A DNA stretch of 61,652 nt, counting the filler, from Sluysia triapertura (taxonomy: Eukaryota): the NCBI GenBank assembly GCA_046118255.1. It is 4 parts of 4 records of this genome, joined end to end, with 100 filler letters (N's around TTAATTAATTAA, not from the genome) between each part and the next. Parts side by side here need not be neighbours in the genome. Positions count along the whole stretch, not along the records: positions 30,390 to 49,091 come from JBJNIA010128628.1; 3 more parts are not named here. One strand, given 5' to 3'. Positions 87 to 57,921 of this stretch are shown here, piece by piece (within the stretch, counting starts at the first letter, position 1; every line of letters begins with the position of its first letter). The translations under genes and the position numbers were made by a program. The notes beneath the pieces are model-generated. The model worked only from the letters and a program-made list of their open reading frames with translations, had not been told where the DNA came from and ran no database searches.

Positions 87-172
87 ATACTGTATTGAAG
101 CTTTATGGAAAATACATTAAATTTTAGGAAAACTCAAAAAATCTTTAGAAATTTAATAGTAAAATTTCTAAC

Positions 173-14898: not shown

Positions 14899-14998
14899 NN
14901 NNNNNNNNNNNNNNNNNNNNNNNNNNNNNNNNNNNNNNNNNNTTAATTAATTAANNNNNNNNNNNNNNNNNNNNNNNNNNNNNNNNNNNNNNNNNNNN
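14899..14998. other. Assembly spacer N44-TTAATTAATTAA-N44
   Basis: Identical 100-nt design at three sites; the linker has stops in all frames. Confidence 0.97.
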
Positions 14999-16490: not shown

Positions 16491-17360
16491 TTGAAACAAG
16501 ATTTATGCATTAATTTTGGTGGCTTCAATATGGTAGCACCAATATTACCATTGAAGGATGGAGTGTTCGGAAAACCCATGGGAGAGGTGATGTATACTTA
16601 CAAATGTAAGAAAGTTACGGTAAAACTATATGATAGTATTGAATGTACAAATGAGTTACCTGTAGAATACAATAATGAAAAACGATATGTAGAACCGGTA
16701 ACTAGAATTATTGTTCCGAGAGAAAATAAGGTCAAAAAACTGGATTGTTCAGTATTAATGTCACTATTGTATAAAATGCATGAGAACTATTGGATTTCTT
16801 TACCATCAAGAATTAGAGTAGAATCTCCCCCAGCTTTAAGTTTAATAGAATTAAAAAAAGGAATTATCTTTCAAACGGAAAATGATATTTTAAAAAGTGG
16901 AATGTATCAAATATCAGATATTAAGAAAGCATGGAATGAGATATTGTTTCCAATTAAAAGAGCACGAATATTAACCGAAATAGTGGATGCTGCATTACCA
17001 AAAGGCTCTAAGGCACCTAATTATGAATTATTACTAACACAAGATCACTTTGAACAGGCAGCGAAACATACTTTACACAAAATTTGGGGAAAATTTGCAG
17101 TAATTGGACAATTCTTTTCAGGGTGCATCGGAATCTATATTGTTATCAAAGCTATTATTATTGTATGCACTCAAGTGTTGTCAACGTATAACATCTATCG
17201 ATTAACCGGCTGTACGTGGAGAATCATCACAGGATTGATTCCCTCCATAGGGCATCATGTGGTGAGTCATGAACATACTCAAGTGATACAAGAACTGTCT
17301 AGCCCAAAAGTACCTAAGAATTATAATAACCACGAGAAATCTGGTGAAAGAAAACGATGA
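16491..17360 (+). CDS. Chuvirus (Jingchuvirales)-like envelope glycoprotein, C-terminal half (endogenous viral element)
   Basis: Ordered motifs GEVMYTYKC, CTNELPV, EPVTRI, DCS, W..LP, GMY...DI...W..I.FP, then W.KF..IGQFFSG.IGIY TM segment and a second hydrophobic helix (GCTWRII..LIPSI). This is the pattern I recall for chuviral G and its retroelement-captured copies. The N-terminal half is absent. Confidence 0.8.
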   Translation: MKQDLCINFGGFNMVAPILPLKDGVFGKPMGEVMYTYKCKKVTVKLYDSIECTNELPVEYNNEKRYVEPVTRIIVPRENKVKKLDCSVLMSLLYKMHENYWISLPSRIRVESPPALSLIELKKGIIFQTENDILKSGMYQISDIKKAWNEILFPIKRARILTEIVDAALPKGSKAPNYELLLTQDHFEQAAKHTLHKIWGKFAVIGQFFSGCIGIYIVIKAIIIVCTQVLSTYNIYRLTGCTWRIITGLIPSIGHHVVSHEHTQVIQELSSPKVPKNYNNHEKSGERKR

Positions 17361-17478
17361 GTCCTTAAATCCGCTGAAAATTGTTGAAGAAATACGACAG
17401 GAAAATAATAAAGACGCCATCAATAGAAAAAACTGTTATTATCTAAAGAAACATTATAATGGTTATAATATCTATTAA

Positions 17479-17730
17479 ACAATATTAGTAAATAAGTACT
17501 CCGTAAAAGGATTAATAGATACTGGATCACAAGTTTCCGCAATGAAAGAAAAGGAAAAGATAATAAGTAATAATGATTGTCTAGAAGGGATAAACGGAGA
17601 ATTAATAAGTGTTAGAAGTCTTTTAGTCGATATGGAAATATTAAATCAAAAGGGAGAACAAGACTTTACGTTTTAGACGAATGCTCAGAAGAAATGGTGA
17701 TTGGTATGGATATACTACAACAATTGAAAG
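17479..17730 (+). pseudogene. Retropepsin (A2 aspartic protease) domain 1
   Basis: ILVNKYSVKGLIDTGSQVS (DTG at 17518-17526) ... one frameshift ... ECSEEMVIGMDILQQL. Confidence 0.85.
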
Positions 17731-17999
17731 ACGTAGTTATACATCCGATTCAAGGATTACTAACATTAGATGAGATGAAAGAAATCGCAACTGAGTTAAA
17801 TATAATTGCTATTAATTCAGACTCTATTGAAAGCTTAGATATGACTGAGAGCGAAATAGACAAAATATTCTCAATGGAAAGTGAAGATAGTTCTGAGACG
17901 GAAAATCTATTTAACACCGCAATTAATACAACACCATCCGATGACATGTTGAACGAGACACCAATAGATGACACAACAAGTAAAATTACATTGGAAGAT

Positions 18000-18318
18000 A
18001 CTACAAGAAGAAGTAATAATCCTAGAGCAAAGGAACGACGAAGAAATAATGAACGTTATCAATAATATAACAAAGAACATCTTTTCTAATTACCAAATCC
18101 AGAATAATGTTTTAAAGTATAAGATGGAAGATAAAGTCCTAACGGTGGTACCTCAGTCGAGGAAAGCGATAATATTAACGAACTACCACCACGGTCAATT
18201 GGGAGGCCACCTTTCAACCAGAAGAACTATTGAAAGAATAAAAAGGAAGTATTACTGGATCAATATGGAATACGAAATCACACAGTGGTGTAAAAATGGT
18301 AAAATGTGTAATTTTTAG
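18000..18318 (+). pseudogene. Ty3/Gypsy-type integrase N-terminal zinc-binding (H2C2) domain with no catalytic core
   Basis: VVPQSRKAIILTNYHHGQLGGHLSTRRTIERIKRKYYWINMEYEITQWCKNGKMC; one expected Cys is Gly. A protease follows directly, not a DDE core. Confidence 0.85.
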
Positions 18319-18429
18319 AATGAAGTAGTAAAGGAACAAGCCAAACAGGAAGGCATACAAGATGATGATACTATGATAATACTATGAAACAAAATTTTAT
18401 ATGGCAAGATATAGAGCCACCTCCTTACA

Positions 18430-18720
18430 GATTGTATCAGGATATCATAATTAATGGAAAGCTAATACAAGGACTAATCGATACAGGTTCAGACGTAAGC
18501 ATCAGACGATATGAAGATATACCAGAACAAGAAAAGATAATGTTATTGGAAGTATTTGAAAAATTTGATGGAGTCGATACATCAACCATGATATTTAACT
18601 GACAGAAAGTAGAAATTAGAATTGAACAGTATAACTTTCACATAGAAATAGCGATAGTACGTAACTGTCCAGAAGAAGTAATAATCGGAATGGACATATT
18701 AGAAAAGTTCCCAGATATAC
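18430..18720 (+). pseudogene. Retropepsin domain 2
   Basis: IIINGKLIQGLIDTGSDVS (DTG 18480-18488), in-frame TGA at 18600, then IVRNCPEEVIIGMDILEKF. Confidence 0.85.
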
Positions 18721-19089
18721 TTATAAAAAAGGATTGAACTAAAAAAGAGGTTAAAGAAACCGAATGTCATAGAAATCTTACCCAATAGAAATCAGCTTAT
18801 CTTTCAAAAAGGAAAAAAGTATAAATACATGTTTAAAGGAAGAGATCAGTACACAGAAATGGAAGATTTATTACAAAGACTAGAAAAGGCTATAAAAAAC
18901 CCGGAGGACATAAACGAATTAGAAAGTCATCAACACTATGATGAATTCACGTAATCCTCTACAATTATATCCAGACTTGAAACATAGACTAAACATAATA
19001 ATACAAAATTGGCCATTTCACCAAATAATTCATATGAATTATTTAGTAATATGGCTGATATGGAAAGAAATTGGTATGGAAAAGCTAAT

Positions 19090-19326
19090 ATGAAAGTCAT
19101 AATGAGAATAGATGGAACGGAACAATAAATAGAAAAGGAATTTCACGTTTGACTGACAGTATCATCTTTACTAGATTTCGTAAAAACGTATTTGAATATA
19201 ACTCAAAAAATAAATTTGAATTATAGAGGAAGAGTATTAGACAGAGATTATGGACTATATTTAATTGATTTTGCATTCCCAATAAACTATCTAATTGACG
19301 ATGACGAAATCACAATTACAATTGGA
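19090..19326 (+). pseudogene. Ubiquitin-like domain copy 1
   Basis: MKVIMRIDGTEQ*IEKEFHV*LTVSSLLDFVKTYLNITQKINLNYRGRVLDRDYGLYLIDFAF...EITITIG follows the beta-grasp pattern (TV..L helix, L.Y.G..L, L.D[FY]); two stops. Confidence 0.6.
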
Positions 19327-19830
19327 AATGATGAAAATAGTAACCCTAAATCTCCTAATGAAGCACAAACATCTTCGGAAAACTGTTGAAAATGGTTGAA
19401 GAAATACGACAAGAAAACAATAAAGACCCCATCAATAGAAAAATCGTAAATCGGGAATTATATCGTGAGGTGTTTAGAGAATTAGCAATAAGTAATCAAC
19501 AACGAGAAAGTTGTTACCTAGGCGAGTACAACCAACTTATCTATTAGACGAAGCATTGAATAACGAGAGAAGAATATTAATGCTTCCTAGAAGAGAACCA
19601 AGTCCACATAAACATGATCATTTATATGAAGAATTAGAAGACGCATTAAAAGAACCAGTAAATTCAATGAGACTAAAAGTAGTAATCGACATTGTTTTAG
19701 AATCAGGGGAATTGTTACATGAATACTCACATCTCAAACACCGACTAAATGAAATTGCACAGTTCTGGATACCTAGTCGAAGGGCAAAAATTTATCAATT
19801 ACTCCGTGATATAAATATGGAGGAAGATTA

Positions 19831-31729: not shown

Positions 31730-33230
31730 GTGAGATAAAATACGAAATCGAAGCATCTGAGAGTTTGCTTAAGAAGAAGTAGTGAAATATTTTTAATAGT
31801 CGATAATTTCTTTTCTGAGTCTTAAGATATCAAATGATAATATGCGACCAATATTAGATCAAACAAATATTCATATGTAATAAATGACATTTCATTTTCT
31901 CCAGGAAAGATATGCGGAACATATATGAATTCGCCTAGTGACGGATTCATTGTTCATTGACGCAGTAGTGTGTAATAATGAGTCAAAGAATGAAAAAGAT
32001 CAACACAGGAATTTCTTAAAGAAGTAAAATCCGACTTAGTGAATGAGGGGAAGAAAAAACTTCTTTAGCATATGATTCTTAGAATAATCACAAAAGTTGT
32101 GAACAAAATTTTGTGTCATCATTGTTTATTTCAGATATTAGTCTCCTTAGAAATTTAATAAAATTTAATAAATCCACTTATTAATAGCAGTTTTAGTTTT
32201 AATTTTAATTTTATATATTTTATTATTTGCGCTGATAAAATTCGAAATAGGTTGTATTTTATTAATTATATTATCGAAATTCAAAATGGCTTTATACAGT
32301 TTATTAATTATGTCGTTACAATTAAAAATATCATATACATGAAATTTAACTTTATAAAAATAACAAAAAGAATTTTTATTAAGTATAAACAATTGAAATG
32401 AAAGCAAAATACAACCTTGTTCACATGTCACTTTTGGAGGACAACCTCCTTTTAATAAACGTGGTTCAAGTGAACATATAGCATCAATAACTTTTTGAAT
32501 TAATTCAGTGTTACTGTTATGCCAACTAAAAATTTTTATTAAACTCGCATTTTTCTTATTTTCCCAAACTTCTTTTTGAACACTGTCAGACATGGCTAAT
32601 TTCGAAGCGTCCTCTATTCTAATTCTTTTTTAACTCTGAACACGGTAAATTTGCAATCATTTTAATATTTATTGTACAAACATGAAATTATTTTCTATGA
32701 ATTTCTATATAATTGATCAACAGTTACAGGACGCTCGGAGTTAATTTTTTAACACAATTCACCTTCTTTCATTTTATGGTATCTTTTATTTAAGCTAGCT
32801 TTTATTTCTTCAGCCATCTATTTCTAGGACCATCAATTATTTTATCGTTTTAAGTAATAGCATCTATATATTTTTGATCTCCTTTGAACCTCTTTATCAA
32901 AATCATAAAATCGAAATATATATCTCGCCCGCAACTTTCCACTTTGGCTATCATGCGAACTTTCGACACCCACACGAGCTACACAAATTGAAAACTGTTG
33001 ATACGATAACCACGAATCATCGGGATCACGTAAGAAACATTTAAGATATTGTTCACCATTATCATCGATTTTCTGTAGATTTTTCATAAATCTATGAAAC
33101 TCTGAATAAGCCATCTTACAAGATGGATACGAATATTCCATAAACACTTCATAAGTATTTTTTATAATTTTTTCTAAGTTAACTTCACCAAATACGCAAT
33201 TAATCAATTGCGAAGATATTAACTTCTAAA
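31730..33230 (-). pseudogene. EF-hand protein pseudogene, probably from an EF-hand/PPP Ser/Thr phosphatase family
   Basis: YEVFMEYSYPSCKM...EFHRFM, LSYQQF, H....GKLRARYIFRFYDFDK (EF-hand entry), later ICSLEPRLL (resembles the segment preceding PPP GDxHG). No catalytic motifs seen; many stops. Confidence 0.5.
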
Positions 33231-35450
33231 AACTTATAATGATTTTTATTGTGTTATGGGTTTGGAGGTATATACTATTTGCGGTAATTCCATAAAATAA
33301 TTTTAAATTATCACCGTCTTTGTACTAGTGATACTTGTACAATAGAACGAAATAAAACAATAATAAACAATAGAACAAACTGCACGAAGTAAATTTTGAT
33401 ATTAATTAATATTAATAAAGTGCTAAAATAATTAAAAATAATAATAGCACAATATGTCCAGATTAAAAACGCAATAAGGATATACATATTATAATGGCAC
33501 AAATGTAGGAGGATACAAATATTTGAATAAAATAAGTGTAGATAAAGTTATCGTACAATAGATATAGGAAATCATAAATGGTTTACAAAGACAAAAGTTA
33601 TAAAAATAAATCAACAAGTTTGTATGCTAACAGTTTAATTCTATATAATCCATTAACACAATTAACATCTAGAAATCCATTTTCGTATATTAATATATTT
33701 TTAAGACTATCATCATAAATACTTGAAAGTAATGAGTACATTGTAGATATTGATGAAGTAATTAAAACAGAAACTAACTTAGGTTCATTAAGCTCAAATC
33801 TATCATCACCATTAGTAACAAATTATTTTTAAAATACAAAACCTGTAGCACGTAAATCTAACATACAGCACTTAAGACAATTACATAAATAACACAAGAA
33901 CAATGTTATAAGCGAAATCAAGAAGACAAGAAAAATATAGATTAACAAAAGCAGGGCTTGCACTTGACAAACACAAAGACGTATATGATTTAAGTCAAAT
34001 ACTATAATGTATGCTTTTATTTAAGTATAACTAATTATTTTTAAATGTTTCACTAAACTAAGGAAAATGTCTTTAACCACAATGATGACTATGTACTTTT
34101 TCAACATTATGTAAAGTTCAAACGTTTCGGATGAAAATTTATTATTGCATGTATTAGTTGTATCAATTTGGAAAATATGTCAAAGACATTTTTTAATTAG
34201 TGATAAAAATGAAAATGTTATGCATTAAATAGAAACTAGAGTACCATATTAACATCATGTTTATAACGTGAAGCCACATTAGCATAAATAGAGAAAAGAT
34301 TTTATTAATTTTTATTTAATCATGCAAAGGGTATCTCTATGCACTGCTTTTGAATTAATCTTGGAGTGCAAGCATTTGGAATGTCGGGAAATAAGAAGAA
34401 AGTTGTCAAAAAATAGTTTTGTTTGAAGATTAAAAACTGCTTAGTACTTACTAGCTTAGACGCAAAATTCTTTTAACTTAATGAAATCTGGAGGTATTAA
34501 AATTGCTATATGGTTATAATGAGATTTTGCGGAAATCCTATGAAAAGGATTTAAATCATTTAATTCTACGAGATCACAATGAAATTCTGATAAAACTTTA
34601 ATGCACGGGCGATTTTATGATTTTGAAACTATAGAAGTTGATTAATATAAAAAATAAAACTTCTTTTTTAAATAATTATGTATCAATTTAATAAATATTA
34701 ATTAAAGCAATTCCATAATTATAAAGAGACCTTAACTTTATTCGAGTTAATTTTTTGTAACAGGGAAGTTTAAATACATTTTCAGTAAAAACCGTTAAAA
34801 TGTTTCCAATATCTTTTAAGTATATTTTAAGTATATTTAAGTATATTTTTCGTAGGATACTTATTAGTATCGAAGTCTTATAAAATAAATTAACGTATTT
34901 TAAATTATTCAAAACAGAAAAATCCTTTCTATGGATAGCCTCTTGGAAGAAGGTAATAGATTTTGATCGGTAAAATGCGTCCTTGCACTTGATACAAATA
35001 TTTATAAAAACTCTATTTCAAATATTGTCGTAGTTAATTTTGTGAATGAGTAAATTTTTTGTATACATTTATATATTTTTACATTGGCCTTGGCCTTAAT
35101 CCATTAAAACAAAATAACAAAATGATGTTTTATTACAGAATGATATTTTATACTATTAATATTTTATTACAGATATTTATATTATTTAATATAAAGTAAT
35201 ATTTTATAAATTAATAATTACTTACGTTAGTTTATTAAAATATTATATTTAATCCAAATATTTAAATTAAATCCAATAAATGATTAAGTAACAATTATTA
35301 ATAAATCAATATATATGTTCATCACAAATTGTGTGTATCTAAAAATCAATCATAATTAATCAATTGTTTACATTCTTCATAATCAATCTTATAATCATCA
35401 ATTTTATATTTACATTCTACTCTTCTGATCAATAGAATTGGTCTCCAATT

Positions 35451-36793
35451 TTAAAAGGTTAAATCGATGACGTCGGAACAATCAAAAAATTCGTCATCAT
35501 CCAGTATTGAGGCAGGGTGTCCAAAGTCCTCATCCAGATCAATATCCACAGCCTCAACGTCGCTGATGTCATCTAGGTCGACGTTTAGATATGTTGATAG
35601 TTTCTTTTGAATCAATATCGGTGACGTCGCTCTTCTTTTTCGGATATTGTTATTTATGTTTTGATCTGTATGTTTTGGGTTAAAGTGTAATGCAGTTCAG
35701 GTTTATCAAATTTAAAAATATTACATTTATTATTTATGCAGCATGTGGATTTTTTAAGTTCATGTAAAGAAGAAGAAGAAAAATAAAAATGAATAAGTTT
35801 TTTATTATTATCAGACATGATTTTATCAGCATTAATTATGACCTTCTGTGGTAAAAATGACTCGTCTCCTTTGCATAAAATGTCAAAAATAGTTAGTGAA
35901 TCTTTAGCATGTTTATTACAGGTGAAATACGTAGGAGGAAAAGAATTTAATAATTGTAATACTCTCCTAGCTTTATTGATAGGATTCAGTGACAGATGAG
36001 AAATAAGATTGGTGCAGGTCAAGTTGATCACACCTCGCAGTCAACCATACGGAATCCTAAAAGTCTTAATAATTAAGTCTGGATAGAAAGACACCAGAAC
36101 TTTATTATACAAGGAAGCAAGACAAAAATTTCTTATATCATCAATATCTTATATCAATTTCTTATATCATCGATAGTTGGAAAGTTTTTAATCCTAATTC
36201 TTGGTCTAATTGCTTCAGTTGAATGGAAAGATTGATGGTAATGCATCAAGCAGATTCTTAAATTCCTTAAAGTCCAAAATAAATTGTGCTGCTATAAAGG
36301 TTAAATTAGATTTTTCCCATTTATACAAAGAACCTACATCAGAAATATATAGAAGTGGACGTTTCTTTATGTCCAAGTGACTTTCTTCTTGTGCAAAAAG
36401 AACAGCAAAAGTCGAGTATCAATATAAACTCTACTTTTACTCGAAGCGTTTGTTATATAGATCGAAGAAAAGCTTTGTAAACGTATTTGCAATGGATTGA
36501 AATCTATATACATAGTGATTCTGATATTCTGATATTAATAGTCACTGCTATTAATATTGATCTATTGTCAGTGGGGTATCCATGGAGAGTGTTTATCACC
36601 AGTGGTGCTTCTAAAGTTCTTACAAGAAAAAGATGAGTGATGAAAGACTCATCGATCTCACACTTTAGAATATTTGGCGTTAAAATTGGCGTTAAAATTA
36701 TCAAAATACTGTGTGACTTTGGCCACAGTATCGGTCTATACCGTTATAAAATGCTGTTATGTTGTTAATGAGTTTTGCGTGCGGTTGCGTCAT
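35451..36793 (-). pseudogene. ORF-X copy 1: ~450-codon intronless unknown gene with acidic C-terminus, decayed
   Basis: ATG at 36793 to TAA at 35451 through several frameshifts and stops; protein-level homology to 53100-54135. Confidence 0.6.
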
Positions 36794-36959
36794 ATTATGA
36801 ATAAAATAGTACATTTTAAAAAGAATAAAAGAGTACATAAAAATATACAAAATAATTTAATCGTTAGTTTATTTTTGTACTATTTTTAATATATTTAATT
36901 ATAATAACCTATGTGTTTTTGGAATAAAAACTTTTATATGACTTTTCCAAGAAAAGGAT

Positions 36960-37377
36960 TTGTTATTTTGTTCTTTTTATACAGTCCTGCCTTTTATAGA
37001 GACGTCTTATTTGTCTGCGACGTCTACTATTCTTCTGTGATTTTGACAACCAAGGAGGATAATTAGGAGGTGGAATGTTTATCGAATGTCTGCTTTTTTC
37101 CTTAATGTATTATGGTTGTGTAATTACCACCTCTTGGATTTCAATGCGTTGATTAGGAAGATATGGTGGAATCTTTTCCAAAGCATATGAATGTTGCAAT
37201 TTGCCCTTATTAAAAATATAAATTTCTTCTGCACAATGGGCAGTTCATATATTCTGTAATAGTAAAGTGAAAAAGATTAATTATGCATTTAAAATGGAAT
37301 TTATATGAGCAAGTATGTGTTTTTATATAATGTTTATGTATGGAACGTTGACAGGTGGAGCACCGATTGAAATACAT
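36960..37377 (-). pseudogene. RING-H2 finger gene copy 1 (55-aa ORF 37210-37377, frameshifted basic tail)
   Basis: MYFNRCSTCQ...TCSYKFHFKCI...NCPLCRR; one His ligand replaced by Tyr; the tail in another frame is Pro- then Arg-rich. Not in the supplied ORF track. Confidence 0.75.
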
Positions 37378-38625
37378 TTACTGAAATTTTAAAAGAAAAA
37401 TAAAAATACTGTGGTTTTTATATCTTAACCTTACTCAAGCAGCAAAATGGAATAAAAAAGGTTCGTCTACAATACGCGACTTACGAATGGCGTGGCTGTA
37501 GATACGTGAAATAATAAAGTGAAAATTCTCAGATAAAATTCGTTGAAAATACGTTGATTGTTACTTAGTGAGTGCAATAAAATTATTCTATCGGTATGTT
37601 TGAAATCTTTAGAAATCTAATGCTTTATTATACACTTCTCTTATGTTAAACCTTAATTTATCAAAAAACAATTATCAAACTAAATAATCGTTTACTTGAA
37701 TTCTTTATTTAATTATTCAATAATTCAAAGGATCAAATAAGAAATATTCTAATATTTATTAATTACACTAAAAAAATATTAAATTAACAATAATATTAAT
37801 GCAAAAGCAAATATTTAATTAATAACAAAATGTCTAAAATCCAATTAGTCTAATAATATAACTAAAAATAATAATAACAATAATAAAGTATTTTTCTTTT
37901 AGAAATACCTAGTCTGCTAGAGGCTGGGCCAGAAGTTTTAATTAGTTTTAAATGATCTTGTCATTGGCCTTAAGGACCAACGGAAATAGGATATTTTACG
38001 TGAGATTTTATGATTCCAATCGAGTACAATTTATAAAAATTAGACTTACTACTTGAAATTTTTAAACGTAAACTGTTGGCCAAAATCAATAGAATACTGT
38101 TGCTGCATTAGCTTGTTGAAATTGTCGTTGAATGTTGCGTTAATCTAATGTAAATACTTGTGGTAGATTTTTGTCGACTTTTTCTCTTTGTCGAATACTT
38201 TATTTGTCTGTTGAATAAGATGTTAACTTTATTTTGCATTGTTGTGCGTCCTTTGTGAATAATATTTGTTTTGAATACTAATTTTTTTGTCATAATGACA
38301 TTAAAATTTTTAAATGATAAAAACAAATACTTTCCAGATTATTCTTTTTCTTAAATTTAATTTTTTAATTATAATTTTTGATATTATTGTTTAATGTTTA
38401 ATTATTATCATACAGATGTATTATGAACAGTATGTATGCTTCAGATATGAAAAAAATTTCCTTTGTTCACTCAAAACACCTGTATATTAGTGAAATCATT
38501 ACTATAATTATTATTAAATTTGGAATTATTATTTTATTAATATTACAAATAAACGAAATATCCTTTTTCTTTTATCTAAATGAGTCATTTGAAATTCAAT
38601 GATTACGTAATAATAAATATAATAG

Positions 38626-38743
38626 GTTTGCCTATATTTAATGATCATCATCATCATCACCACCACCACAATAAAATATACCATAATCATCAGTTATTTA
38701 TACAGCATTTAAAATATAATAATAATAATAATAATAATCATAG
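38626..38743 (+). CDS. Possible His/Asn-rich exon
   Basis: AG/GT-bounded open segment LPIFNDHHHHHHHHNKIYHNHQLFIQHLKYNNNNNNNH; could be microsatellite noise. Confidence 0.3.
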
Positions 38744-40369
38744 GTGATTCTCATTAATATTTCATTATTTACATATAAATAGCCATTTTATGTAATCACT
38801 TAAATTATGCGCACACACTAATTTTATTTAAATTTACTATAAATAAACTATGACATTAACAAATTTCTAATTCATGATTTTTTTCTTAATACATTTTAAT
38901 AATTTATTTTTATTGATTTTTATTTGTAATTCTATAAACAAAGCATAAATTAGTTTTGATTGAATTTAAAAATAATACTAATAATAATAATAAAATTTTT
39001 TAAAGATGTGTAATATACATAATAATTTCTAATATCATAAATGATTATTGCATTATTATTTAAATTTTTGCAGTCATTCGAATCACCATAGTAATTGAAC
39101 AATTGATTAATATTTTTATGGTTCACTTTAATGATAAAAACCAATTGTTTATAAGTAGTGTAGCTAAGTAAAAATTAGATTAACAATTAAATATCTAAGT
39201 AAAATTATAGCTGTTCTTTCAGTAAAATAGGATTGGTTTATTTTAGCTACTAAATTGCAGTTATAGTTCAAAAATAAGAAATAAAATTATTACAATTAGA
39301 AATAATAAAAATTTTTATCAAAATATTGATTCTATATTTAGCATTCTACTGTAAAAGTGCGCCTTCTTTTGTACATAATTCAAATTAACTAAATTATCAA
39401 TATTTTTCTTTGGCATTTACAAATATAGATAAATTTTTTAAATTTGCCAAAATTTTCGGGACTTTTTATAAATTATAATTACAACAAAAACAATTACAAA
39501 ATTAATTTTTATTAATTTTCTTTAAGAAATCGATTATTTTTAGTTTTTTTTTCTTGCTTTTAACAGATCTAAATATTCTTAATCTCTTCAATAGCAATAA
39601 TCGCCTTTTTAAAATTTTCAAAAGAAAAATTGTGTTCAATTTTTGATTGTTAAATTTTCTTAGAATTTTGAATGAATAAAAGTCAATGTACGAATTTATT
39701 TTTATAAATACAATAGAAAAGCTGTGATAAGACTTTTAAAAAGCATCATAATCTGAAAGCATTAATGTTTACTTTATCAAATAATGCAAATCTAAATTGT
39801 CAGATAAAAAATCCATAATTTCAATCCATAGTTTTTTAAAAATAAAACAAATTATACACAAAATGAAATAAAACATTCAACGAAATTGACTTTTGGTGGT
39901 AACATCACTGTCACATTTTATGGTATCATGAGTTTCTTCTATATTTGTATCTAATTTCATTTACCATTTCAAGGCTTTTGTATGTCATTTGTAAGATGAT
40001 CTTTAAAATCAGTTTTTTATTGGTCAACTTATCGTTTTACATACATAACATTGTATTTATGTTCTTGGATTTTTTAAAATAATTTTATCAAAGAATTTCT
40101 TATGGTCTATGTCAGATTTGTTAATAAATAATTATAAATTTATGGACTTTAAGATAAGAATTTGTTTAATTTTAATAAGTGTTCAATATAATTTAATCAT
40201 TTTCCACACAATTTAAGCATTTTGTCATATAACTTAATCTATTTAGAAATTAATTAGAAATTATAATTATAATGGTAATATATATTATTCAGTAAAATAA
40301 AAAACTCCAAAATAAGCGAACATTCATACTTTTTAATAAATTTAATAAAAATATATTTATTTAAAATGG

Positions 40370-40640
40370 TTCACTGTCAATTGCTCTGATTAAACATTCT
40401 CGCATATACCTAAAATATGGATTAGAATCTTTTCTAAAATGCAGATTTTATGATATTTTTCAATTTCGAAAATACTTTTTCAGTTGGATTAAGTTGTTGA
40501 GAATACGGTGGACTAAATTTTATTTCATGACCCATATAAGATACAAGATGTGATTTATGTATGGGTACATTATCCATAATGATTATCATATTTGACAAAA
40601 GCATTAAATTATCTGAAAAACCTTGTAAATTAGACAAAAT
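40370..40640 (-). mobile_element. Tc1/IS630-type DDE transposase fragment
   Basis: IIIMDNVPIHK...PPYSQQLNPTEKVFSKLK matches the DN...H / PPYSPxLNPIE motifs. Confidence 0.85.
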
Positions 40641-41669
40641 GTATAATAAAATATAAATATATTTAAATATAAATAAATAAATATATAAATAAATATAAAT
40701 ATATAAAAATAAAATATAAAATAAATTATATAATAAAAGTATTTGTTTATTAGAATTATAGATATGAAAAAATAAAATGGAATATTAGCTATTTTTGTTA
40801 CCTTTTTTTGAAACAGTATAGCACATTTGGTTAAGCATGAAATTTGATTCATGATAATTCAAGACTGACGAACTCGTTAATCAAAATCATCGAATAAAAA
40901 TTTAGTTTCATTTATTACTAAAAATAATATTCATCACATTTTATTTTGAAATATAGTTTTACATTTTTATATGAAAAAAAAGCTTTCCAAATTCCATTTT
41001 ATATTTAATTATATTTTATATTTTATATTTTATTTTATGTTTAATTTATTTAAATATTTTATTTATTTTAATATTTTAAAATTTATTTTAATATTTTATT
41101 AATAAATTAAAAGTTTATCATTGTTTTTGTAAATATAGTTTGTTTATATTTAAATAAATTATTATTATTTTTGTTTCTATAAACTATTCATAAAGTTTAT
41201 TATTGTTTAATTTAAATTTCAAAGATTTTATATTTTATAATCACATTTTAATTGTACAAATTAATTTTCTATTTTTTGAAAATAGACATGATTATGTAAA
41301 ATTTAAATTTTTTATAAATATTATTAAATTGTACAAATATTTTTGGAGCTATTTTACAATAAATATTTTTATTAAATATATTTCAAATTCTAAATTTTAA
41401 TGCCACTGTAAAATACAAATCATTAAATATTTGATGCATTAAGTATGTGAAAAGTTTTTTCTACAAAAAGTTTTTAGTTTAAAAGATGTAGAATTTGATT
41501 AATACTTATTTCGGTTTGATTTAGTTGGCTTAATGTGAAGTTATATATTAACAAAGACAATGTTAATATAAATAAAATACTTAACTAATTAAAATAAAGA
41601 GAAAATGAAATAAATAATAATAATAATAATGCCTAATTATAACTATAAACTAACATATATAAAATTTAG

Positions 41670-43313: not shown

Positions 43314-46300
43314 GACTAAACAATAACAATTATTAAATTGTTAACTTTTATTGTTTCTTTTTTATTTTGGAAATACAATTTACTAAAAATACTTTGTCAA
43401 AATTATTTATCACATAACTGCTAAAACGTAATTGCTAAAAAAGTCTCTAAATAAAAATCATTAAAATTATTAAATTAAAATGTAAATTCAAAAACGAATA
43501 CGAATAATATGCAAAATGAAAATCCTTTCAAATATCAGAAAATTTATTACTAAAGCATTTATTGATATCTAATATAATTTAAACGGTTTTTTCTCATCTT
43601 TAAGATAAAAAAGTTATCTGAAATATACATTAATAACAATGTAAATTATAGATTTTACAAGCAGCTATCCGAATAGATTGATTTCTTGTAGGATTTTAAT
43701 TTTCAGCAAATAAAAAATATCCTGGAATACTCTATTATATAAGTATATATAAGCAAAGATAATATTTTGCAAAACGTTTTACTTTCATCATGAATTCCAT
43801 CGACATTTTCCTCATTTTTAGCATTCCAGTTCATCTGAATATAATCCTTGGAAACATATGAAATTATTGATTTATTTTCAATATTCAACTATAACTAAGC
43901 ATCAATAAGTATATATCTTAACGATCATGATCGTTTCATAAAGAAAACTTAGTATACAGTTGGAGTAACTTGTCAAAATCAGCGATGGTCATTTGATTTC
44001 ACTTTCAGATATATCTTTGAAGAAGATATATCTAAATTATGAAGAGCATTGCACTAAAATTTATTAATATTAAACCATTATAAAATCCACAAATCAGGTC
44101 ATTCACACACCTGCAAGATAACATTGTAGCTAGGAAAATATTACCTAGTTTCTGATCTCAAATAAAAATATCTACATAATGTAGAAAATTTGCTTAACTT
44201 TATTAAGTACTTATCGGGAATCAATGTATTAATAATAATATTTTAAAGTAACAAAGAATTTTAATATTTATTAATAATAATACTAAAATTTTTTACATAA
44301 AAATATAGAAATATATTTATTTTTAAATGCTTACATTTTTGGTGATTTAATTTTATTTATCTAAATATAATTTAATTTTGACGAAGTATTTTTCGAAATC
44401 ATAATTATCAAACAACATGAACATAACGAAAATATGTGTCATATCGAGGTACAATTTCTATGACAACTTTATGTTTTTTATTTGTTGGTTTGTATTAAAG
44501 CGTTAATTTTTCTAATTCATATAAATGTTTAAAAAATAATTAAATTAATCATATTATAAATTAAAAATTAACAATGTTATTAAGTTTTGAATTTATGAAT
44601 GATTATAAAATTTTGGTGATTAAATATTTACCTTTAAATTCTAATAATAATAATAATAGTAATAAGAAAAATATTAATAATAATATAATATAATAATTAT
44701 AGTGCTTAAATAAATATTATTTTATAAATACGGTTCACTTAAACAATATATTATTTTCATTTTTGAAATATACTCGAAAATCAGTGCAATTATTTTTAAA
44801 CCAAGACAAAACAAATTTCGGTTGACGCACACAGAATTATTCGAAGTACCGTTTTAGTTTAAACTTCTATTAATAGAAACACTTGAAAACAAAATTAGAA
44901 ATTTTCAGTTCGATTAACATTTGATTTAAATTCATTTAAGTATAATTGTAATTATTAATACTATGTTCAAAATCGATCTACTTGTTCATAATGTTATTTA
45001 TTGTATATCTACAAGTTAGAACTGATTAAATTTAAAATTAAATTTTTATTCCATCAAAAAACTTATTTGTATGAGTTTTAATCAAGTTCAAAACTTAAAT
45101 GATTGAATATTTATTTATTATGAATTTGAGAAAAAGGTTTCATTTATTCGAAATTTACTTTCAAAGCTGTTGAATTATTTTTATTAATTTATCTACTAAA
45201 AATTAACGCTTACAAGTTTCGTTTTTATTTTTTAACAGCCAATGCTAATTTTTTATTCCGATTTTGTTTTTATATGATTAAAAAGTATAATGTGACAATA
45301 AAAAAGATTATATGTTGTATTTTAATTGGAATAATTGCAGTACTACAAAAAAAACAGATTCAAATTGATGTTTCACGTTTAAATGATTCATTTATGTTAT
45401 CTTTCTGAATAGTCAAATTAATTTTGCTGGGTGTTTTTCTTAATCTAAAACCTAACCTACAGCAAAATAGTTAATTATTATGAGTCCGTTTACAGTATAC
45501 GACTTACCAATGGCGTACCTGTAAAAATTACGTGAAAGCAATTACCAAAATTAACTCGTACAAGAATAATCTTCGCCTTAACCTAACAATAATGGATAAA
45601 ATCGTCAACAATTAACAACTAATAACTTAAAAAACTAATTAACTAATTAAGACCAACGTTAACTTAACAGGTATTTGAATTAAAATTAAGTAAATAACTA
45701 TGATATAGGAATGTGCTCTTATCTCCAAGTTCTATTACTATGACCGTTAAAATTTTTATGAAATTAATATCAAATTGAACGTAATTCTTATTTCTTAATA
45801 ATAACAAACAAAATAAAATATATATTAATTAGGAGTTACTCCGTAGTTAACAATAATTATAAACTCAACTTAAACTTCTTATTTATAAGACAAAAAACTC
45901 AAAACTCCTCTAATGTTTTTTATTATTGCACAAAATTAAAAACAAATATTAAATGATAATAAATAACACACAAAAAACAAAATTAAGAAACATAATTCTT
46001 GATTCTTTGGATTCAGAACATGTATAATAATTTGAAATTCTTAAAAATAATTCACCAATATTTTATATACTTTTTAATTGAAAATTATATTAATTCTAAA
46101 TTTAATTCATTAATATATTATTGATTATTTTATAGATTATCACAATCATTGATGATAATCCTTATAAATATATGCAATTACACACCATAAGTAATGTAAT
46201 ATACTGAGCAGTATATAAAGTTGATATTATTTTATCAATTACCGATCAGATTCATTCGATCTTGTGTTGTTAATTTATGTTTTATTGAGCGCTAATTTAG

Positions 46301-49091: not shown

Positions 49092-49191
49092 NNNNNNNNN
49101 NNNNNNNNNNNNNNNNNNNNNNNNNNNNNNNNNNNTTAATTAATTAANNNNNNNNNNNNNNNNNNNNNNNNNNNNNNNNNNNNNNNNNNNN
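49092..49191. other. Assembly spacer
   Basis: N44-TTAATTAATTAA-N44. Confidence 0.97.
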
Positions 49192-50211: not shown

Positions 50212-53200
50212 ATGAATGTTATTAAATTATTTCTTTATATAATGCCACTATACAAATTACATGGTATTAATGGAATCGAAGATTTTTCTGATAGGTTTCA
50301 ATTTAGATTTATTCCATTCGTGCTGGTAGTGTGTGGAATAACAGTTTTTTTATGCGGCTTTTTGCGATGGCCAATTACATGTATATTTGCAAATAATCCG
50401 TATGGTATGAATTTTCATGAATATTCGGAATATTTATGTTTTACTGAAGGCACTAGTGTAATTCAATATCACATTTCTTCACATTCAAATGATATAGATA
50501 AATATTCTTTACGCTACTATTCATGGTTACCGTTTTTATTTCTTTGTCAAATAATTATGTTTTCTATACCAGAAATTATATGGAAAAAGGTGCATAAAGA
50601 GTGTGTAGGATGTTCATTAAAGCCGATTATTGTGATAGGGTTAAATATAAATAATAGTGATATGGATGATAAAGAAAGAAATTCAAAATTAAGTGACTTA
50701 ACTGAAGCAGTTAGAAAAATAAACAACTTCGTTAGATTTTTATTTTTTAAAAACAATTTTGTCAAATTATATATGCATTTTCCTCAATAAACATACGAAA
50801 ACTTATTTTATATTCACCTTAATATATTCTAAAATAAATTTTTGGTCAAAACTTGATATTCATTTTATTTGAAGTTAAACTATAATAAAATCTAACGTTT
50901 GTAATCTTAATAAATTAGAATTTTTCTATTTAATACTAGGCAGAAAATTTATTCTTAAAAAGGTTGAATTCTACTGTTAGGACCATTTTTATGCGACTAA
51001 CAGACTCTGCCGGCAATTTTTCTATTATTGCTACTTTGATTACGATGATAGACCTAAATGATAGGTTTACGCAGAATCCAAAGGCATTTATAAATGGATA
51101 ATTAATGTCCATTGTTCTAAAACGTAAGTTATTTATTGAGATAAATAGAATAAGCTTCTCTGTGTTATGCCGTTCAGATGGAGACTGTATTTTTTGTAAT
51201 GGTAATGAAATGTTAAGAGACATTAAGAATAAAGTTAAACTTGAAGTGGAATATTATGAAATGTTCTGCTTAGTTCCATTGGAGAAGAGTGATGATATTA
51301 AACATTGCATAAATTTCAGTCATATAAATACTGCAACAAGATATTAGCATTTCAAATGCTATCCTTTCAATAATTAGCACAATAATTGGTAGTCCTAATG
51401 TATTTTCACTGCTTGGTGCAAGGAAATATCAAATGTTAGTACACTAGGTTGAGAGAAATACTATATTTTCATGCGGTTTTCCTAGCACTTAACCATGGCA
51501 AAAAAAAATTGAGCAGGTTCCGGTTACGGTAAATAACTTATAAGGTAGGATGGGCGTTACTGCAACTGTAAATTAACAATTCTTATCTTAAACTATATCT
51601 TTAAATGAATGTTTTTCCTTTTAATTATGCAATTTAACTTCCTTTTATTCCTTTAATAATTATTCTTAGAGGTTCTTGTACTACCTTGCTTTTTAAATTA
51701 CAAATCAAAAATGCACTTTACATAATAAATAAAACAATGAAAATTTAACAATTTATTCGAAACAATACAAATTTATAATAGACATTTATAAAAAAATCAG
51801 GTGCAACAATAAAAATAAATTTAAAATAAAAACCTATTAAGTATTTAATTTATAATAGTAACGAATTTTAAAATGAAGTTTAACCGTCAATATATCGGGG
51901 AAATCAAGTGTATAAATAAAAATTTGGTAGATTTTATGATATTAATTTCTGTTCAGATTTAACTAAAACTTAACTGGACAATTATAAAATATATTAAACG
52001 GGTCCACCTATAATCTAAGTTTTATATCTCACGGAAGACTTAGTTATAGGATTGTAATATGTCAACGCTACGAAAGAGTCCTTACTATCAATTATGTATA
52101 TCTATTGACTACTGATTAATGTTACTTAATTGTATCTTTTTATAGCAGACTCAACAACTTTACGAATCAAATACAAAAATTAAAATAACAAAGTTTAATA
52201 CTCTAAATATTCTACGAATTTTTATTTTTCACAAAGAAAATATTTAATAATACAAGTGCGAATAAGTGAATATTTAATAATATAAGTGCAAATAATAACA
52301 ATAATAGTAAATATATCAATTTAAGGATTTCTCCTAAATTAAATTATTGAATAAGATTTTAGTATGATTTTAACCCAGGTGAATACTTGAGTGTGGAAAA
52401 TGAATATGATTTTGAGTATATTTTAATACAGCAAAACTATTTTATTTTTATGTACTTTTATAAGTTATTATTGATTTAATTAATTAAAAAGTTAAACAAA
52501 ACAATTTTATAATTTTAATATCTACATAATCTACATAATATCTACATTTCAAAAAATAACTTACGAAGTTCATGGAATTGGGAAATAAAATAAACAAAAT
52601 GAAATAAGATAGACAAAATTGAGTGTTGCAGAATAATATTATTAGCCTTCTCCAGATGCAATTGATGTTGATAAACTGAAGGCCTTCAGATTAATTATAA
52701 TGTTTTTGTTAAAATTGCGAATAAAACCAAAATTTCTGCTGAAATTGTGAAAAATAAAATTATAACAATGTGACTATTTGTATAGGCTAACAGCCAATCA
52801 AAATCGAATAGATTTCTAGAATGTTCTAGAAACTTCGTTGTATTTTATAAGCAAATTTGTTTTGGAAAATAAGTTTCTTTTTTTATAAAATTGGTCTTTT
52901 AAATAATTTTAGACAATTGTAATGACAACCTAACGTAACTTACTCATTTAAAAAAATTTGACCTCAAAATTTGACACATTTTACAATGAAATTAGGGATT
53001 AAGTGATAAAATATAGAACGATATACATATGTAATCAAAAAGTTTATTACTGTAATTATTCCATCAATAACCTTCATTGTGATCAAATATGTTCAGATCA
53101 TTGTTGTCATTTAACCCATGTCAATCTCTATCCCAGCCATAAAGGTCATCCCGGGGAGAATGGGAGGCGTCGTCAAACTGTCCAGGAGAAAGCAAGTCGA

Positions 53201-55258
53201 TACAGCGACAGGAGAGTAGAGGAGAATTAAACGTAAAAATCTTCTTAATCGCCAATTATTGTGGGATTGGTTGCTACTGGAGAAAGAAAAGAATGAGGAA
53301 ACGAATGTGGTAAAAATGACAGATCCTTTAGCCAAATATGATCAAATAAAAGAATGGCATATTTAATAATCAAGGCAAGACAATTTTCGAGGAAAAAGGT
53401 GAGGTCATTTTATCACCTGTTTTGCTTTTATGAAAGGATCGTCTGAAGAGAATGACACTAAATTGGTGTTGGTGAGGAAACAATACCCGTCAACCAAACC
53501 TAAGGAATGTTCTATGGATTATAAGTAATTCGGGGTATAATGATACTAAAAACTTGTCGAAAAGCTGCGAATTTCTTCAATATCCTTAGCTGTAGGTTAA
53601 ATGTTCTTCATTGAGTCCATGAATTTCTTTATAAAAATTTTTTAACTCGTACTCTAAGTCGCAGGATTTCCAGTGTATGATACTTTTTCTGATAAGGTAT
53701 ACAACACAATTGCTTATCGTTCACGTTAAAAACATGATAGAATGATGTGTCTCATCAAAGACGGATAAGAACGGTACGTGAGTATAAGTACGACACTCCT
53801 GTCACAACAAAATGTTGAACATAAGTGTCGTACAAATGTGATGAACATGTTTTGTTTTCGAAGGAAAGCATGAAAGAGTATGGTTAAGGTGGAAGGATAT
53901 TTTCCAGCTTCTGTTCTATTCCATTTTAAGAAACGAATAGTCCAACAAAATAGGATATTATTAACCAGAAAGATTATTAATCGTGATTGAAGGAAAGTTG
54001 GCGGAATACGTGTGTTACAAGGTTAGTATTTCGGGTTAAAAGAATTGGTGGTACATTTCGGAGGTGGAAAAGAAACACAGTCAGACCCGCAAATACTTTG
54101 TCCGTTGGCTAAGTAGATGTGATCTAAAACGACATAAATTATATAAAAAAGGAAAAAATCGTCATATACAAACAAAGCAAAAAAATTTTGTAAATTATTC
54201 TTTTAGTATTTACATATTGTAAAAAAATTATTTTAAAGAATTGCAAAGAGGTAATTTGTTTAAGGAAAGGGTTCGGTCTAATGTTAAGGTGTTTATTGTA
54301 GAGGCCATTGGCCTTGTAAAATCTTTTCAATTCATGCACCCGCCTACTACGTTTTTGCGTTTATAGTAAGGCTCGTGTATGGTGACTACAGCATTGAAGT
54401 TAATTTGAGCACTAGATAAATAAGTGCAAATAGTGTCTGTATCTGGCTATGTAGAAAATTTGATAAGCTGTTAAAGTTGGACGACAAAAATGACAAATGG
54501 GATAAGCAGTGGGATAATTGTAGAGAAAAAAGATATACCTAAAGTGAAATCGATGATATCGAGGCATAGAAGAAGCTTGGTGTTTTCTGAGTGTTTTTAA
54601 ACAAATTGAGCAGATGGAAAAACCTATATCTAAAAAAATTAAATTTAACAAAAGATGTATAATAAATTTATAGAAAACCTAAGTAATCTTTTTCTTAATT
54701 ACAAATGAAATTATGCTGCGAGAAAGATACATATAGCTACATCCTTAATTCGCCGCAACCAGGTGTATAGAAAAAACCACAACGACGGTCGGTTCTCAAA
54801 TTGAAGGATATACTATTTCCTAAGCACAAACTGGATACTTATGTCGACGAGTTAAAAGCAGATTATATTTAATAGCTTCAAGCAACACGATTGATGTTAA
54901 ATAAAAATGTACAGCATTTAAACAAAAATAACTTATTAAACATGACTCATTAAAGAAATTTAAATATTTATTTAAAAATTCAGTTAAACAAAAAGAGGAA
55001 ATTTCAGTCCGTACATTTAGTTTTGTTTTATATTGCTATCAAAATCCTTTATTTATGCAACGTGATATTTCAATTATGGTTTGTGGAGCACATATTTCGA
55101 ATTGATAAATCATCTCAAAATACGTTCGGTTTTTCTATTTTAAGACGCATTATTGATCATACAGATCAAACTTTCAATGTAACTCAGACTATTTTCCCCA
55201 GATATGCATTTTGCCATGTTGAATTCAAATTATTAGCTGGTGTAAATAAATATGTTTG

Positions 55259-55319
<61 letters not shown>

Positions 55320-57921
55320 ATTATTATTATTTGCAGTTTTTCTAAGATATTAATTAACTATTAAAGTTTTATCTCGAACATCAAACTAAGATGAAATAAA
55401 TGAATAAGGGAGAAGAAACCCATCTAATTGTTTACCATGTTTCAGTATCTGAATAATAGACTAATTATTAAAGATTCAAACCAGTTATTTCAATAAGAAA
55501 TATTTAATTTAACCTACTATTACCTGCAGCGAACTTAATTAACCAATATATAATTTATTAAACTCGCAGTTACGATGACATTTAAGTAAACAAGTCCACA
55601 CATAACTTTTCTACATGCTAGAATTATACTATAAACAAAATTATCGTTTTAAAATAAGGTAAGTAACAGATCTTATTGATGAATTATGTAAAAATGTCAC
55701 TTTTGAATTACTGCCATTCATGAGTTAATTTGCTTTAGTGTAATAATAGAAAATAAAAACAGTGATCAATATACTATGGATAATAATAAAACAATTTTAT
55801 GTATAATAACAAAAATTATCAATGCATTTTTCCAGTTAATCACTTAAAGCTCTTTTGAAGAAACAATTGAGCCACAAATTCAATGTGTTAATTTTGAATC
55901 AATATTCGATAAAAATGAACAATTTCTTTTCTGTGCCTGTAAATTTTCAATCAATTCGGATTCTAAAAATCTGGAGTCTATTTTTGAGCACAAGTTTTTA
56001 TATCACGATATTTACGATTTCATGAATGGTGTCTATATTAACATTGACTCGAAATCAATTTCCGTTATTTTTTTATTAATGATACAAATTATATTAATAT
56101 AAAATGATGCGGTGGGATTGATTAATTCTATCACTAGCCGATTTAATATTTTCCTTATGAGCAAAGTCGATTAATGGGTTGCCATTCTTTGGTTTTGTGT
56201 AATTGTTGATTCTGGAATTTTTAAAAAACTTTTGAAACTAGAAACTTTCGCCGTTTTTATCTTCATCCTTTATTAAAACCATTCTGTAGCTTTTATTAGG
56301 ACTATTTGTTTTTTGATTAATTTTGTTTAATTTTTTATTTACAATTGATTTTTGATATGTAATTTTGATTTTTTTTTCGTCCTTTTCATCATTAGTATTT
56401 TTAATTTTAGAGAATTCTTCAGCCGGTATTTCTAATTTTTTATTCGCACAAATGACTTTTCCATTTATAGAAACATCTTCTGTTACTAAATTTTGAATTT
56501 ATATATTTAATCTGAATTTAAATTAGTTTTATGCGAAAACATTATTATCTGAATAATATTAAATTAAAATGAGCATATATTTATGGAGATTATAATAGAG
56601 CATTTATGCAGATTTTATGAAGATTATATTACAATAGTAATTTACATGTATTTGGTCTTTTGTAATAGTTAAATGTTTGTTAGTATTCATCTTTTGCGCT
56701 GCTTTTCGTATTTTATTAGATTTAATTTGTGAATGTCTGAACTTTAATTATCCGAATACAATACACACCATTAACAATTAACTAAATGTAAGAAAATATC
56801 AGTATAACGCATATATTCCAAGTTACGCAAAATCCACTGCAGAAATTAGTTTGAAGGCTTTGGTTTTAATCAAGGAGTTGTATCCAAATTCAATATTTAA
56901 ATTGTCGGCGAGCTGGTGTCAGCTTTTCGTGAAGAGGAATGATAATTTGTAAGAATAAGAGATAATTCAATAATGTAGAAAATTGGTTGTTAATCAGAAA
57001 TATACAATAATTTAAGGAAGAGGTATGAATATCGAAGAATTCAAGAAATTTTGTATGACTAATGTCATGGACGGAACGAGTAAGATGATATTTATGGTGT
57101 GAAAATGAATTAATGTTCGGAGAATATGATAAGCCAATTGAAATTGAAAATTTGACAGAGAGAAGATGAAAATAATTGTCTCCGTAATGAAGAAACTTTA
57201 TTTGAATGAAAATAAACATTTTTGCAACAATTTATTCTTATCTGGATTCCTAATTTTCTAAACAGGATAAAAATTATTTACTGATCACGATCATCATTCA
57301 AAAAATAAGACTAAAAGCGTGATATGTAATGGATATTTACTGTAATTTCTTACTATTATCTTGTTTAAAGATGTTTCTAAATGTCTTCAAAATACTTTTG
57401 AAAGTTTATTCTACCGTTTTTGTACATTCTCACATACATTAAAATTATTTCGTAAATATTCAGATTCACTCTAGATATTTAAATTTATTTAGATTTTTAA
57501 TAATTTTATTTTTATTATTTAGGTTGCTCAATGTGTTTTACCATTAAACATATTACTGGAGAAATTATTCGTTATACTTTGTTTGCTCTTTTTAGTATCA
57601 GGAGCTTTTACATTAATGTCTATATTTTATTGGTTAATAAAACTATTTACACGTCAACGCGTAAGGTATTTTGAAAGACTTCTTAAATACCACAGTGACT
57701 ATCGTCGACAATTTGATGATTCTAATAATAATTTGGATAAAGTAATTACTTTTGAAGAATTGACAAAAGAATTAAATGTTAATAATAGTTTTCTATTAAT
57801 GATGATTGGTTATAATTGTGGTGAAATATTATTAGCTGAAATTCTGTTGAAAATAGAAAATAATCAGCTTAGTGCTAATATGAATGGTAAAAATGCTGAC
57901 AATCAAAAGCAGTTCTTTTGA
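50212..57921 (+). CDS. inx: Innexin (gap-junction protein), 3 exons, 395 aa
   Basis: Exons 50212-50730, 54984-55253, 57523-57921, all phase 0. Motifs EDFSDR, PITC, EYLC, YYSWLP, KILYLCN, FPRYAFC, QCVLPLN..EK; four hydrophobic segments. Confidence 0.93.
52794..52850 (+). promoter_or_regulatory. CCAAT box, five-unit heat-shock element, TATA-like box
   Basis: GCCAATCA at 52794; tTTCt-aGAAt-gTTCt-aGAAa-cTTCg at 52813-52837; TTTTATAA at 52843. Confidence 0.55.
53100..54135 (-). pseudogene. ORF-X copy 2, decayed
   Basis: LFDKFLVSLYPELLI, IP*VWLTGIV/LTNTNLVS...DPFIKAKQVI, KDLSFLP align in order with copy 1. Confidence 0.6.
54412..54651 (-). pseudogene. RING-H2 finger gene copy 2
   Basis: CSICLKTLRKH...HRFHFRYI...ICHFCR; two Cys ligands lost; aligns with copy 1 with at most a one-residue gap. 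Confidence 0.7.
56780..57110 (+). mobile_element. pogo-family transposase relic in innexin intron 2
   Basis: FKLSASWCQLFVKRN (CENP-B-type HTH) and FKKFCMTNVMDGT (pogo C-terminal FKK..I.N.LDG motif); the middle is deleted. Confidence 0.6.

Follow-up and report, generated by a model that had tools for sequence, protein, structure and literature searches.

What kind of element could have combined a gene for a small RING-H2 finger protein with a gene for a protein of no recognisable family (ORF-X) is the question raised by a locus of Sluysia triapertura. It lies in a stretch of 61,652 nucleotides, referred to here as the window, which is made up of four AT-rich contigs joined by N-spacers. Its gene content, including an innexin gene, a SAC3/GANP gene, an LTR element with a Monjiviricetes-type fusion gene and a DDE_3 remnant, is that of an invertebrate animal.

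Layout of the RING/ORF-X pair and its second copy

The original prediction described the two genes as a head-to-tail pair on the minus strand and placed a second pair, in the same order, on another contig. Six-frame reading bore out the coordinates and the gene order of copy 1 (37377–35451, minus strand), and copy 2 was found at 54627–53064, also on the minus strand, past the N-spacer (49092–49191) lying between the two different contigs. The RING-H2 gene of copy 1 (36934–37377) comprises about 147 codons from the ATG at 37377 to the stop at 36934, and its parts are an N-terminal RING in an unbroken ORF (37377–37213), a Pro-rich linker and a basic tail, with frameshifts and stops downstream of the RING. 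The following AT-rich spacer of about 120 nt (36815–36933, minus strand), which contains a T/GT-rich tract in addition to AATAAA (position 36873), was read as the end of one gene and the start of the next. ORF-X (35451–36814, minus strand) has an in-frame ATG at 36814 or 36793 and a stop at 35451, giving about 448–455 codons, and is interrupted by several stops and frameshifts, its longest unbroken piece being 128 aa (36040–35657). In copy 2, the remnant of the RING gene (54213–54627, minus strand) has kept the basic tail and a GLY/NPFL block common to copy 1, and the ORF-X remnant (53064–54135, minus strand) consists of about 357 codons with an acidic tail and many stops and frameshifts. Several stops and frameshifts occur in each copy, and seven frameshifts fall within the ORF-X alignment.

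The pair had been described as intronless. This fits copy 1, where the spacer includes a stop and AATAAA and no acceptor AG precedes ORF-X, but the spacer of copy 2 can also be read as a 90-nt phase-0 GT..AG intron (54213–54124) fusing both ORFs in frame, which makes the intronless two-gene reading uncertain. The in-frame ATG before ORF-X stands at a matching position in both copies, and together with the features of the copy 1 spacer this supports two genes. Judged from the sequence, an intronless two-gene organisation is therefore likely, and a fused RING-X product would be a minority reading.

Homology of the two copies and signs of coding constraint

Comparison of copy 1 with copy 2 by tblastx gave three collinear HSPs for ORF-X (sum E 1.6e-9) and one HSP for the RING gene (E 0.001). 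With a codon aligner that tolerates frameshifts, and with dinucleotide shuffles as the null, ORF-X scored 120 (shuffle mean 42.7, maximum 68), a value reached by none of 300 shuffles, and the RING gene scored 92 (shuffle mean 38.7, maximum 63; 0/500). The pairwise alignment, chosen beforehand as one of the points on which the prediction could be refuted, was thus significant against shuffled controls. The same was seen with real sequence as a control, where the two tiles overlapping copy 2 scored 120 and 105 among 192 window tiles and the best other tile reached 61. All four protein blocks quoted in the original prediction were found in the reads of both copies, and the similarity extends past them into the basic RING tail, the first codons of ORF-X and its middle part. 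The statement that stops in one copy face Trp or Tyr in the other proved correct for two of the five stops in the aligned blocks, the other three facing Ser, Gln and Leu.

Coding constraint was measured in 14 hand-anchored blocks of 214 codons in total. Identity was 112/214 (52%), 127/214 (59%) and 62/214 (29%) at the three codon positions, compared with 27%, 28% and 28% in the shuffled null; as the blocks were hand-picked by amino-acid similarity, the values of positions 1 and 2 are inflated, and the chance level of the third position is the sturdier part of this result. Different codons encode 52 of the 75 identical residues. When neutral evolution was simulated at an equal DNA identity (47%), amino-acid identity came to 17% (maximum 26% in 500 runs) versus the observed 35%, and about 16 stops were expected versus five observed over both copies. 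Identity above the null at positions 1 and 2, combined with a third position at chance, indicates that selection on the protein was acting while the lineages diverged, as had been predicted, and that the decay of both came afterwards. By this codon pattern, the copies are separate subfamilies, which diverged while functional and decayed later, each on its own.

Features of the RING finger and ORF-X

Of the C-C-C-H-H-C-C-C ligand pattern with RING spacing, the finger has seven of the eight positions in copy 1 and six in copy 2, and every position is kept in at least one copy. The Pfam family zf-RING_2 matched copy 1 with E 1.9e-5 and 25.3 bits, under the cut-off of 27.3; copy 2 had no Pfam match, and no PDB sequence matched the RING at E 0.01. 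The finger, degenerate in both copies, is by its motif and this sub-threshold Pfam match probably of the RING-H2 type, and the E3 ligase activity is putative, being deduced from the motif. AG acceptor-like sites are located 2–3 nt ahead of the RING start in both copies.

The C-terminal tail of ORF-X in copy 1 (35451–35642, minus strand) contains a basic RKRR cluster and, after it, an acidic segment that includes VDIDL and VIDLT, which we take to be NLS-like and SIM-like motifs, respectively. Both kinds of motif are confined to copy 1, the tail of copy 2 being acidic without VIDLT. Searches for homologues agreed with the claim that ORF-X cannot be assigned to any family. The unbroken 128-aa C-terminal piece had no match among 1.84 billion representatives at E 0.001, and word-index searches returned 51 candidates for this piece, 911 for one frame of copy 2 and 13 for the best-conserved block aligned as two rows, none of which passed. 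ORF-X pieces matched no Pfam family and had no significant match in PHROGs or among PDB sequences. No relatives of ORF-X or the cassette were present in the viral contigs scanned, where eight pattern loci were chance matches not extending past the motif, or in the metagenome contigs scanned, where five loci were matches inside stop-ridden frames. The single-sequence AlphaFold model of the 128-aa piece had a pLDDT of 41.8, an unusable fold, and gave no BFVD match at E 0.001. The queries were all short or decayed, consisting of unbroken pieces of 45–128 residues or, in one case, of a read partly out of frame, so the blanks are weak evidence.

The motif scan of the cassette detected neither a Walker A or YxDD motif nor a recombinase box. 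A DDE or HUH motif shared by the two copies at equivalent positions was likewise not seen; HUH-like triplets do occur, at non-homologous places in copy 1 and copy 2. The H-x-x-R box-II motif was absent from all minus frames, and no R-H-R-Y-type motif was seen. A Merlin-like EIDES motif was rejected, as it is missing from copy 2. Altogether, the two copies have in common neither a transposase or recombinase motif nor an HUH or RT motif.

The cassette belongs to a dispersed repeat family

Contigs of one public run, possibly the source of the window itself, were mapped on the locus, and their summed depth is not equal to copy number. On the 8-kb region of copy 1 (33000–41000), 4,192 contigs mapped with 80–100% identity: 353 at 99% or above, 717 at 95–99%, 1,445 at 90–95% and 1,677 below 90%, so that 3,122 of the 4,192 had less than 95% identity. 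The summed depth was 208–2,943 over the cassette versus 27–126 at 38607–40208, and 13–19 for the near-exact contigs of the locus. Peaks were found at 36499 (4,075 from 14 contigs) and at 37017 (15,903 from 22 contigs). Such depths in the thousands would point to collapsed near-identical copies or to an episome. The description of the cassette as old fits the two decayed copies, but the depths suggest that younger subfamilies of nearly identical members, or an episomal form, exist. The mapped region also includes a Tc1/mariner-type DDE_3 remnant (40434–40784, minus strand; E 2.3e-10), lying inside a high-depth repeat at 40209–40742.

Copy 2 has few close relatives, with a depth of 40–75 over most of ORF-X versus 26–35 in the flanking intron. 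Two conserved hot spots were seen (53588–53739 and 54196–54347), and by hand translation two loose ends at these places extend the R-P-R-V-R-V motif with synonymous codon changes. The surrounding sequence (50731–55007, plus strand, 4,277 nt) is presumably intron 1 of a host innexin gene, in which copy 2 lies antisense. The exons of this divergent gene (~50212–50730, 55008–55253 and 57523–57921, plus strand) tile the Pfam Innexin profile (positions 2–168, 155–233 and 236–329), and their GT/AG splice sites are in phase. Other repeats fill about 51450–52950, leaving at most ~2 kb of the intron for the copy 2 cassette. Several very high-copy short repeats are also present in this intron, with a summed depth of 25,428 at 51916–52067. 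The cassette thus occurs at unrelated sites, on two contigs with unrelated flanks, once within an intron, and has thousands of diverged contig relatives. The predicted mobile family is supported by the intronic insertion and by these contigs, and we concluded that the pair represents a dispersed repeat family rather than a host gene pair.

Ends, flanks and other features of the window

Candidate TIR and LTR pairs were rejected, as no inverted or direct terminal repeat rose above the shuffles (observed scores were reached by 5 to 75 of 200), no TSD was identified, and neither an LTR-like direct repeat nor a poly-A tail was seen. The flanks of copy 1 and copy 2 did not align with each other (73/200 and 189/200 shuffles were as good). 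None of the 15 reads searched, which were twelve six-frame reads of the flanks and three minus-strand frames of ORF-X, matched a Pfam family, and Pfam revealed no viral hallmark gene, either within 33.3–38.6 kb or in the 4.3-kb innexin intron that surrounds copy 2. The inspection of the flanks proposed in the original prediction therefore came out empty for gag-pol, recombinase, DDE, PolB, LTR and TIR beside either copy.

Directly upstream of the copy 1 RING gene, a short high-copy repeat is situated (37397–37511, minus strand), whose relatives at 45415–45537, 12015–12135 and 51456–51576 have no RING behind them. This family has a GGTTAG/CGCCATT-type core and a summed depth of 1,400–2,900 at the two places mapped, and it is possibly the 5′-end or promoter of the element or an independent insertion. 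Downstream of copy 1 lies a ~600-bp non-coding repeat (34520–35100, minus strand; second copy at ~60300–60850), which ends in a hairpin with a 7-bp stem. The hairpin (34534–34553) shows a compensatory stem change between the two repeat copies; its fold was equalled by 9 of 200 shuffles, and no counterpart of the hairpin was found behind copy 2. Helitron-type ends have a 3′ hairpin close to CTRR. The hairpin here is ~80 nt from a CTAG at 34450 and ~900 nt from the ORF-X stop, and this CTAG, as a candidate end, has no adjacent hairpin (z +1.5). One contig joins 34663 to 37409, which weakly hints that the upstream and downstream repeats mark both ends of a single ~3-kb element. A 109-aa ORF over the downstream repeat (34688–35017) was rejected as a third gene, as its homologue at ~60.3–60.85 kb is conserved as DNA and stop-ridden and the protein Atlas gave no match; it is probably a chance ORF. 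Since the whole 33.0–38.6 kb region is repetitive, the cassette may be only part of a larger unit.

Further features were recorded along the window. Upstream of copy 1, a GC-richer, multi-copy stretch at ~37850–38350 (minus strand) has broken ORF-like frames, without a Pfam match or a second copy in the window. A decayed EF-hand gene (~31800–33290, minus strand; Atlas EF-hand clusters 0.90–0.93) is multi-copy at 33097, and the stretches after it resemble PPP phosphatase by eye only. An LTR-retroelement remnant at ~15500–19500 (plus strand) contains a Monjiviricetes-type fusion glycoprotein ORF (16479–17360, E 6.8e-43), an integrase zinc-binding domain (17968–18318) and a 65-bp direct repeat (17367–17431/19379–19443). 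An interspersed repeat family occupies three contig positions (30499–30776, 49275–49726 and 58510–58980) with ~63% identity among them, and a host SAC3/GANP-family gene with several exons is located at 145–6069 (minus strand; E 1.6e-15 for 145–1227). Rfam found nothing in the window.

Comparison with known systems

Polinton/Maverick elements and endogenous dsDNA viral regions resemble the cassette in their compact co-oriented genes, deep between-family divergence under selection and orphan ORFs. They differ in that the cassette has no nearby match to PolB, integrase, ATPase, protease or capsid, no long TIR and, in copy 2, room for no more than ~2 kb; PolB, integrase, packaging ATPase and capsid genes were not found in 33.3–38.6 kb or in the surroundings of copy 2, and both copies may be fragments. 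RING and SIM ligases such as RNF4 and herpesvirus ICP0 likewise bring together a RING, nuclear localisation and acidic SIM-like motifs, which is a functional analogy only, as the motifs of the cassette are split over two genes, the SIM-like motif is present in copy 1 only and no sequence homology exists. Features of LTR or non-LTR retroelements (YxDD motif, Pfam match, LTR-like direct repeat) were not seen, nor were those of Helitrons, Helentrons or Replitrons (HUH Rep at a homologous place, Walker A, Pfam match).

According to the accessible text of Kapitonov and Koonin, RING and Chapa domains are known in transposons only from Chapaev/RAG1-like elements (PMC4411706). Like the cassette, these members of the Transib superfamily are invertebrate mobile elements with a RING finger (accessible parts of PMC4411706 and PMC1131882), but there a Chapa zinc finger precedes the RING, which is fused to a DDE core of ~600 aa, whereas the RING of the cassette is N-terminal, H2-type and probably encoded by a separate gene, and ORF-X has no similarity to RAG1/Transib. 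With the motifs given in the accessible part of PMC1131882, neither a RAG1-core-like DDE (Pfam and PDB in any frame, with a sensitivity lowered by decay) nor a Chapa finger (six-frame reads) nor TIRs (against shuffles) could be detected. Animal Cryptons, as far as the accessible part of their description goes, have no terminal repeats and abundant non-autonomous derivatives (PMC3212892). The cassette shares this lack of terminal repeats, but it has neither an R-H-R-Y-type motif nor a Pfam match to DUF3504 or integrase, and the word RING is absent from the text of that paper. The same source names only four types of enzyme for DNA integration of eukaryotic transposons. No matching architecture appeared in the accessible parts of papers on Replitrons (PMC10288648) and Mutator (PMC6446971), and no description of such a RING and ORF-X cassette was found in the literature searched, the scope of which did not include Repbase Reports, subscription journals and supplements.

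Possible origin and function

The decayed pair likely belongs to an unclassified DNA mobile element or to a virus-derived element. As the best reading, which we hold tentatively, it comes from an unclassified DNA mobile element that would encode a RING-H2 E3 ligase and, in ORF-X, an orphan protein of the nucleus; the observed basis of this reading is the gene order, the protein-level constraint, the diverged relatives, the insertion into an intron and the decay. Origin from an endogenised or episomal DNA virus or a Polinton/Maverick-like element, of which a fragment with a RING E3 and a structural or regulatory orphan was amplified in the genome, appears somewhat unlikely. Large DNA viruses commonly carry RING E3 genes, and the compact, co-oriented arrangement of the genes, separated by ~120 nt that include a poly-A signal, as well as the saturation of synonymous sites between lineages, would suit such a source; a high-titre episome could also give the depth of 4,000–16,000 from 14–22 contigs at some positions. 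Endogenous dsDNA-viral regions are described, in the accessible part of a recent report, as widespread and poorly classifiable in invertebrates, with Orthopolintovirales insertions in flatworms (10.1101/2025.04.19.649669), and RING fingers are otherwise reported in transposons only for the Chapaev/RAG1-like group, at least in the accessible text (PMC4411706). Against a viral source, the same two genes are kept together in both copies, whose flanks are unrelated, no viral hallmark gene accompanies them in 33.3–38.6 kb or in the 4.3-kb intron of copy 2, and no relatives were found in PHROGs or in the viral and metagenome contigs scanned.

That the genes are host-derived cargo or a host gene-family pair without a role in mobility, as with genes transported by a Helitron-like element or scattered pseudogenes of a lineage-specific expansion, is improbable. 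The decayed multi-copy EF-hand gene nearby on the same strand, the hairpin-ended repeat downstream with the contig connecting it to the 5′ motif, and the AG acceptor-like sites before the RING in both copies would be in keeping with it. However, the gene order has stayed linked despite ~35% amino-acid identity and saturated third positions, ORF-X pieces have no host homologue among the 1.84 billion representatives or in the word-index searches, and the CTAG at 34450 lacks an adjacent hairpin (z +1.5). Quite improbable, too, is a single spliced gene for a RING-capped transposase of the Chapaev/RAG1-like Transib build that has diverged past detection. The intron reading of the copy 2 spacer would join the ORFs in frame as such a gene needs, but copy 1 lacks an AG before ORF-X and contains a stop as well as AATAAA, and the ATGs match in both copies. 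The RING of RAG1 is of the C3HC4 type and the finger of the cassette is H2-type, no TIR was found, six-frame reading revealed no Chapa motif upstream of the RING, and neither Pfam nor PDB gave a RAG1/Transib match, with a sensitivity lowered by decay. In favour of this gene structure, Chapaev transposases are, in the accessible text, the published RING-bearing transposons (PMC4411706).

If the cassette does derive from an unclassified DNA mobile element, the element would spread as DNA, given that neither an RT nor an LTR nor a poly-A tail was observed. ORF-X, predicted to be nuclear with entry through its basic cluster, would likely serve as the element's own DNA-handling or anti-silencing factor and may bind SUMO via its acidic VIDLT-type tail. 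The RING protein, as a ubiquitin ligase, could then ubiquitylate SUMO-marked silencing or defence factors, so that the pair would work by analogy as RNF4 or herpesvirus ICP0 divided over two proteins. Mobilisation might be carried out by ORF-X itself, or in trans by a partner gene missing from both copies. A bolder version, which we consider distinctly unlikely, is that small mobile DNAs of this kind (~2–3 kb, without TIR or LTR) form a new eukaryotic superfamily, in which ORF-X would be a mobilising enzyme or capsid outside the known DDE, YR, HUH and RT classes, the RING ligase would use the SUMO-binding tail of ORF-X to destroy host silencing factors, and young near-identical copies or an episome would persist in this animal.

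As younger copies appear to be present in the same genome, the nature of the cassette is directly testable. Should ORF-X prove to be a Polinton gene or a known transposase in diverged form, the finding would be a routine addition to the repeat library. A high-copy element in which a RING-H2 gene stands alone beside the gene of an orphan nuclear protein would mean a new class of elements, a new lineage of invertebrate DNA viruses, or a transposon-borne, ubiquitin-based anti-silencing device.
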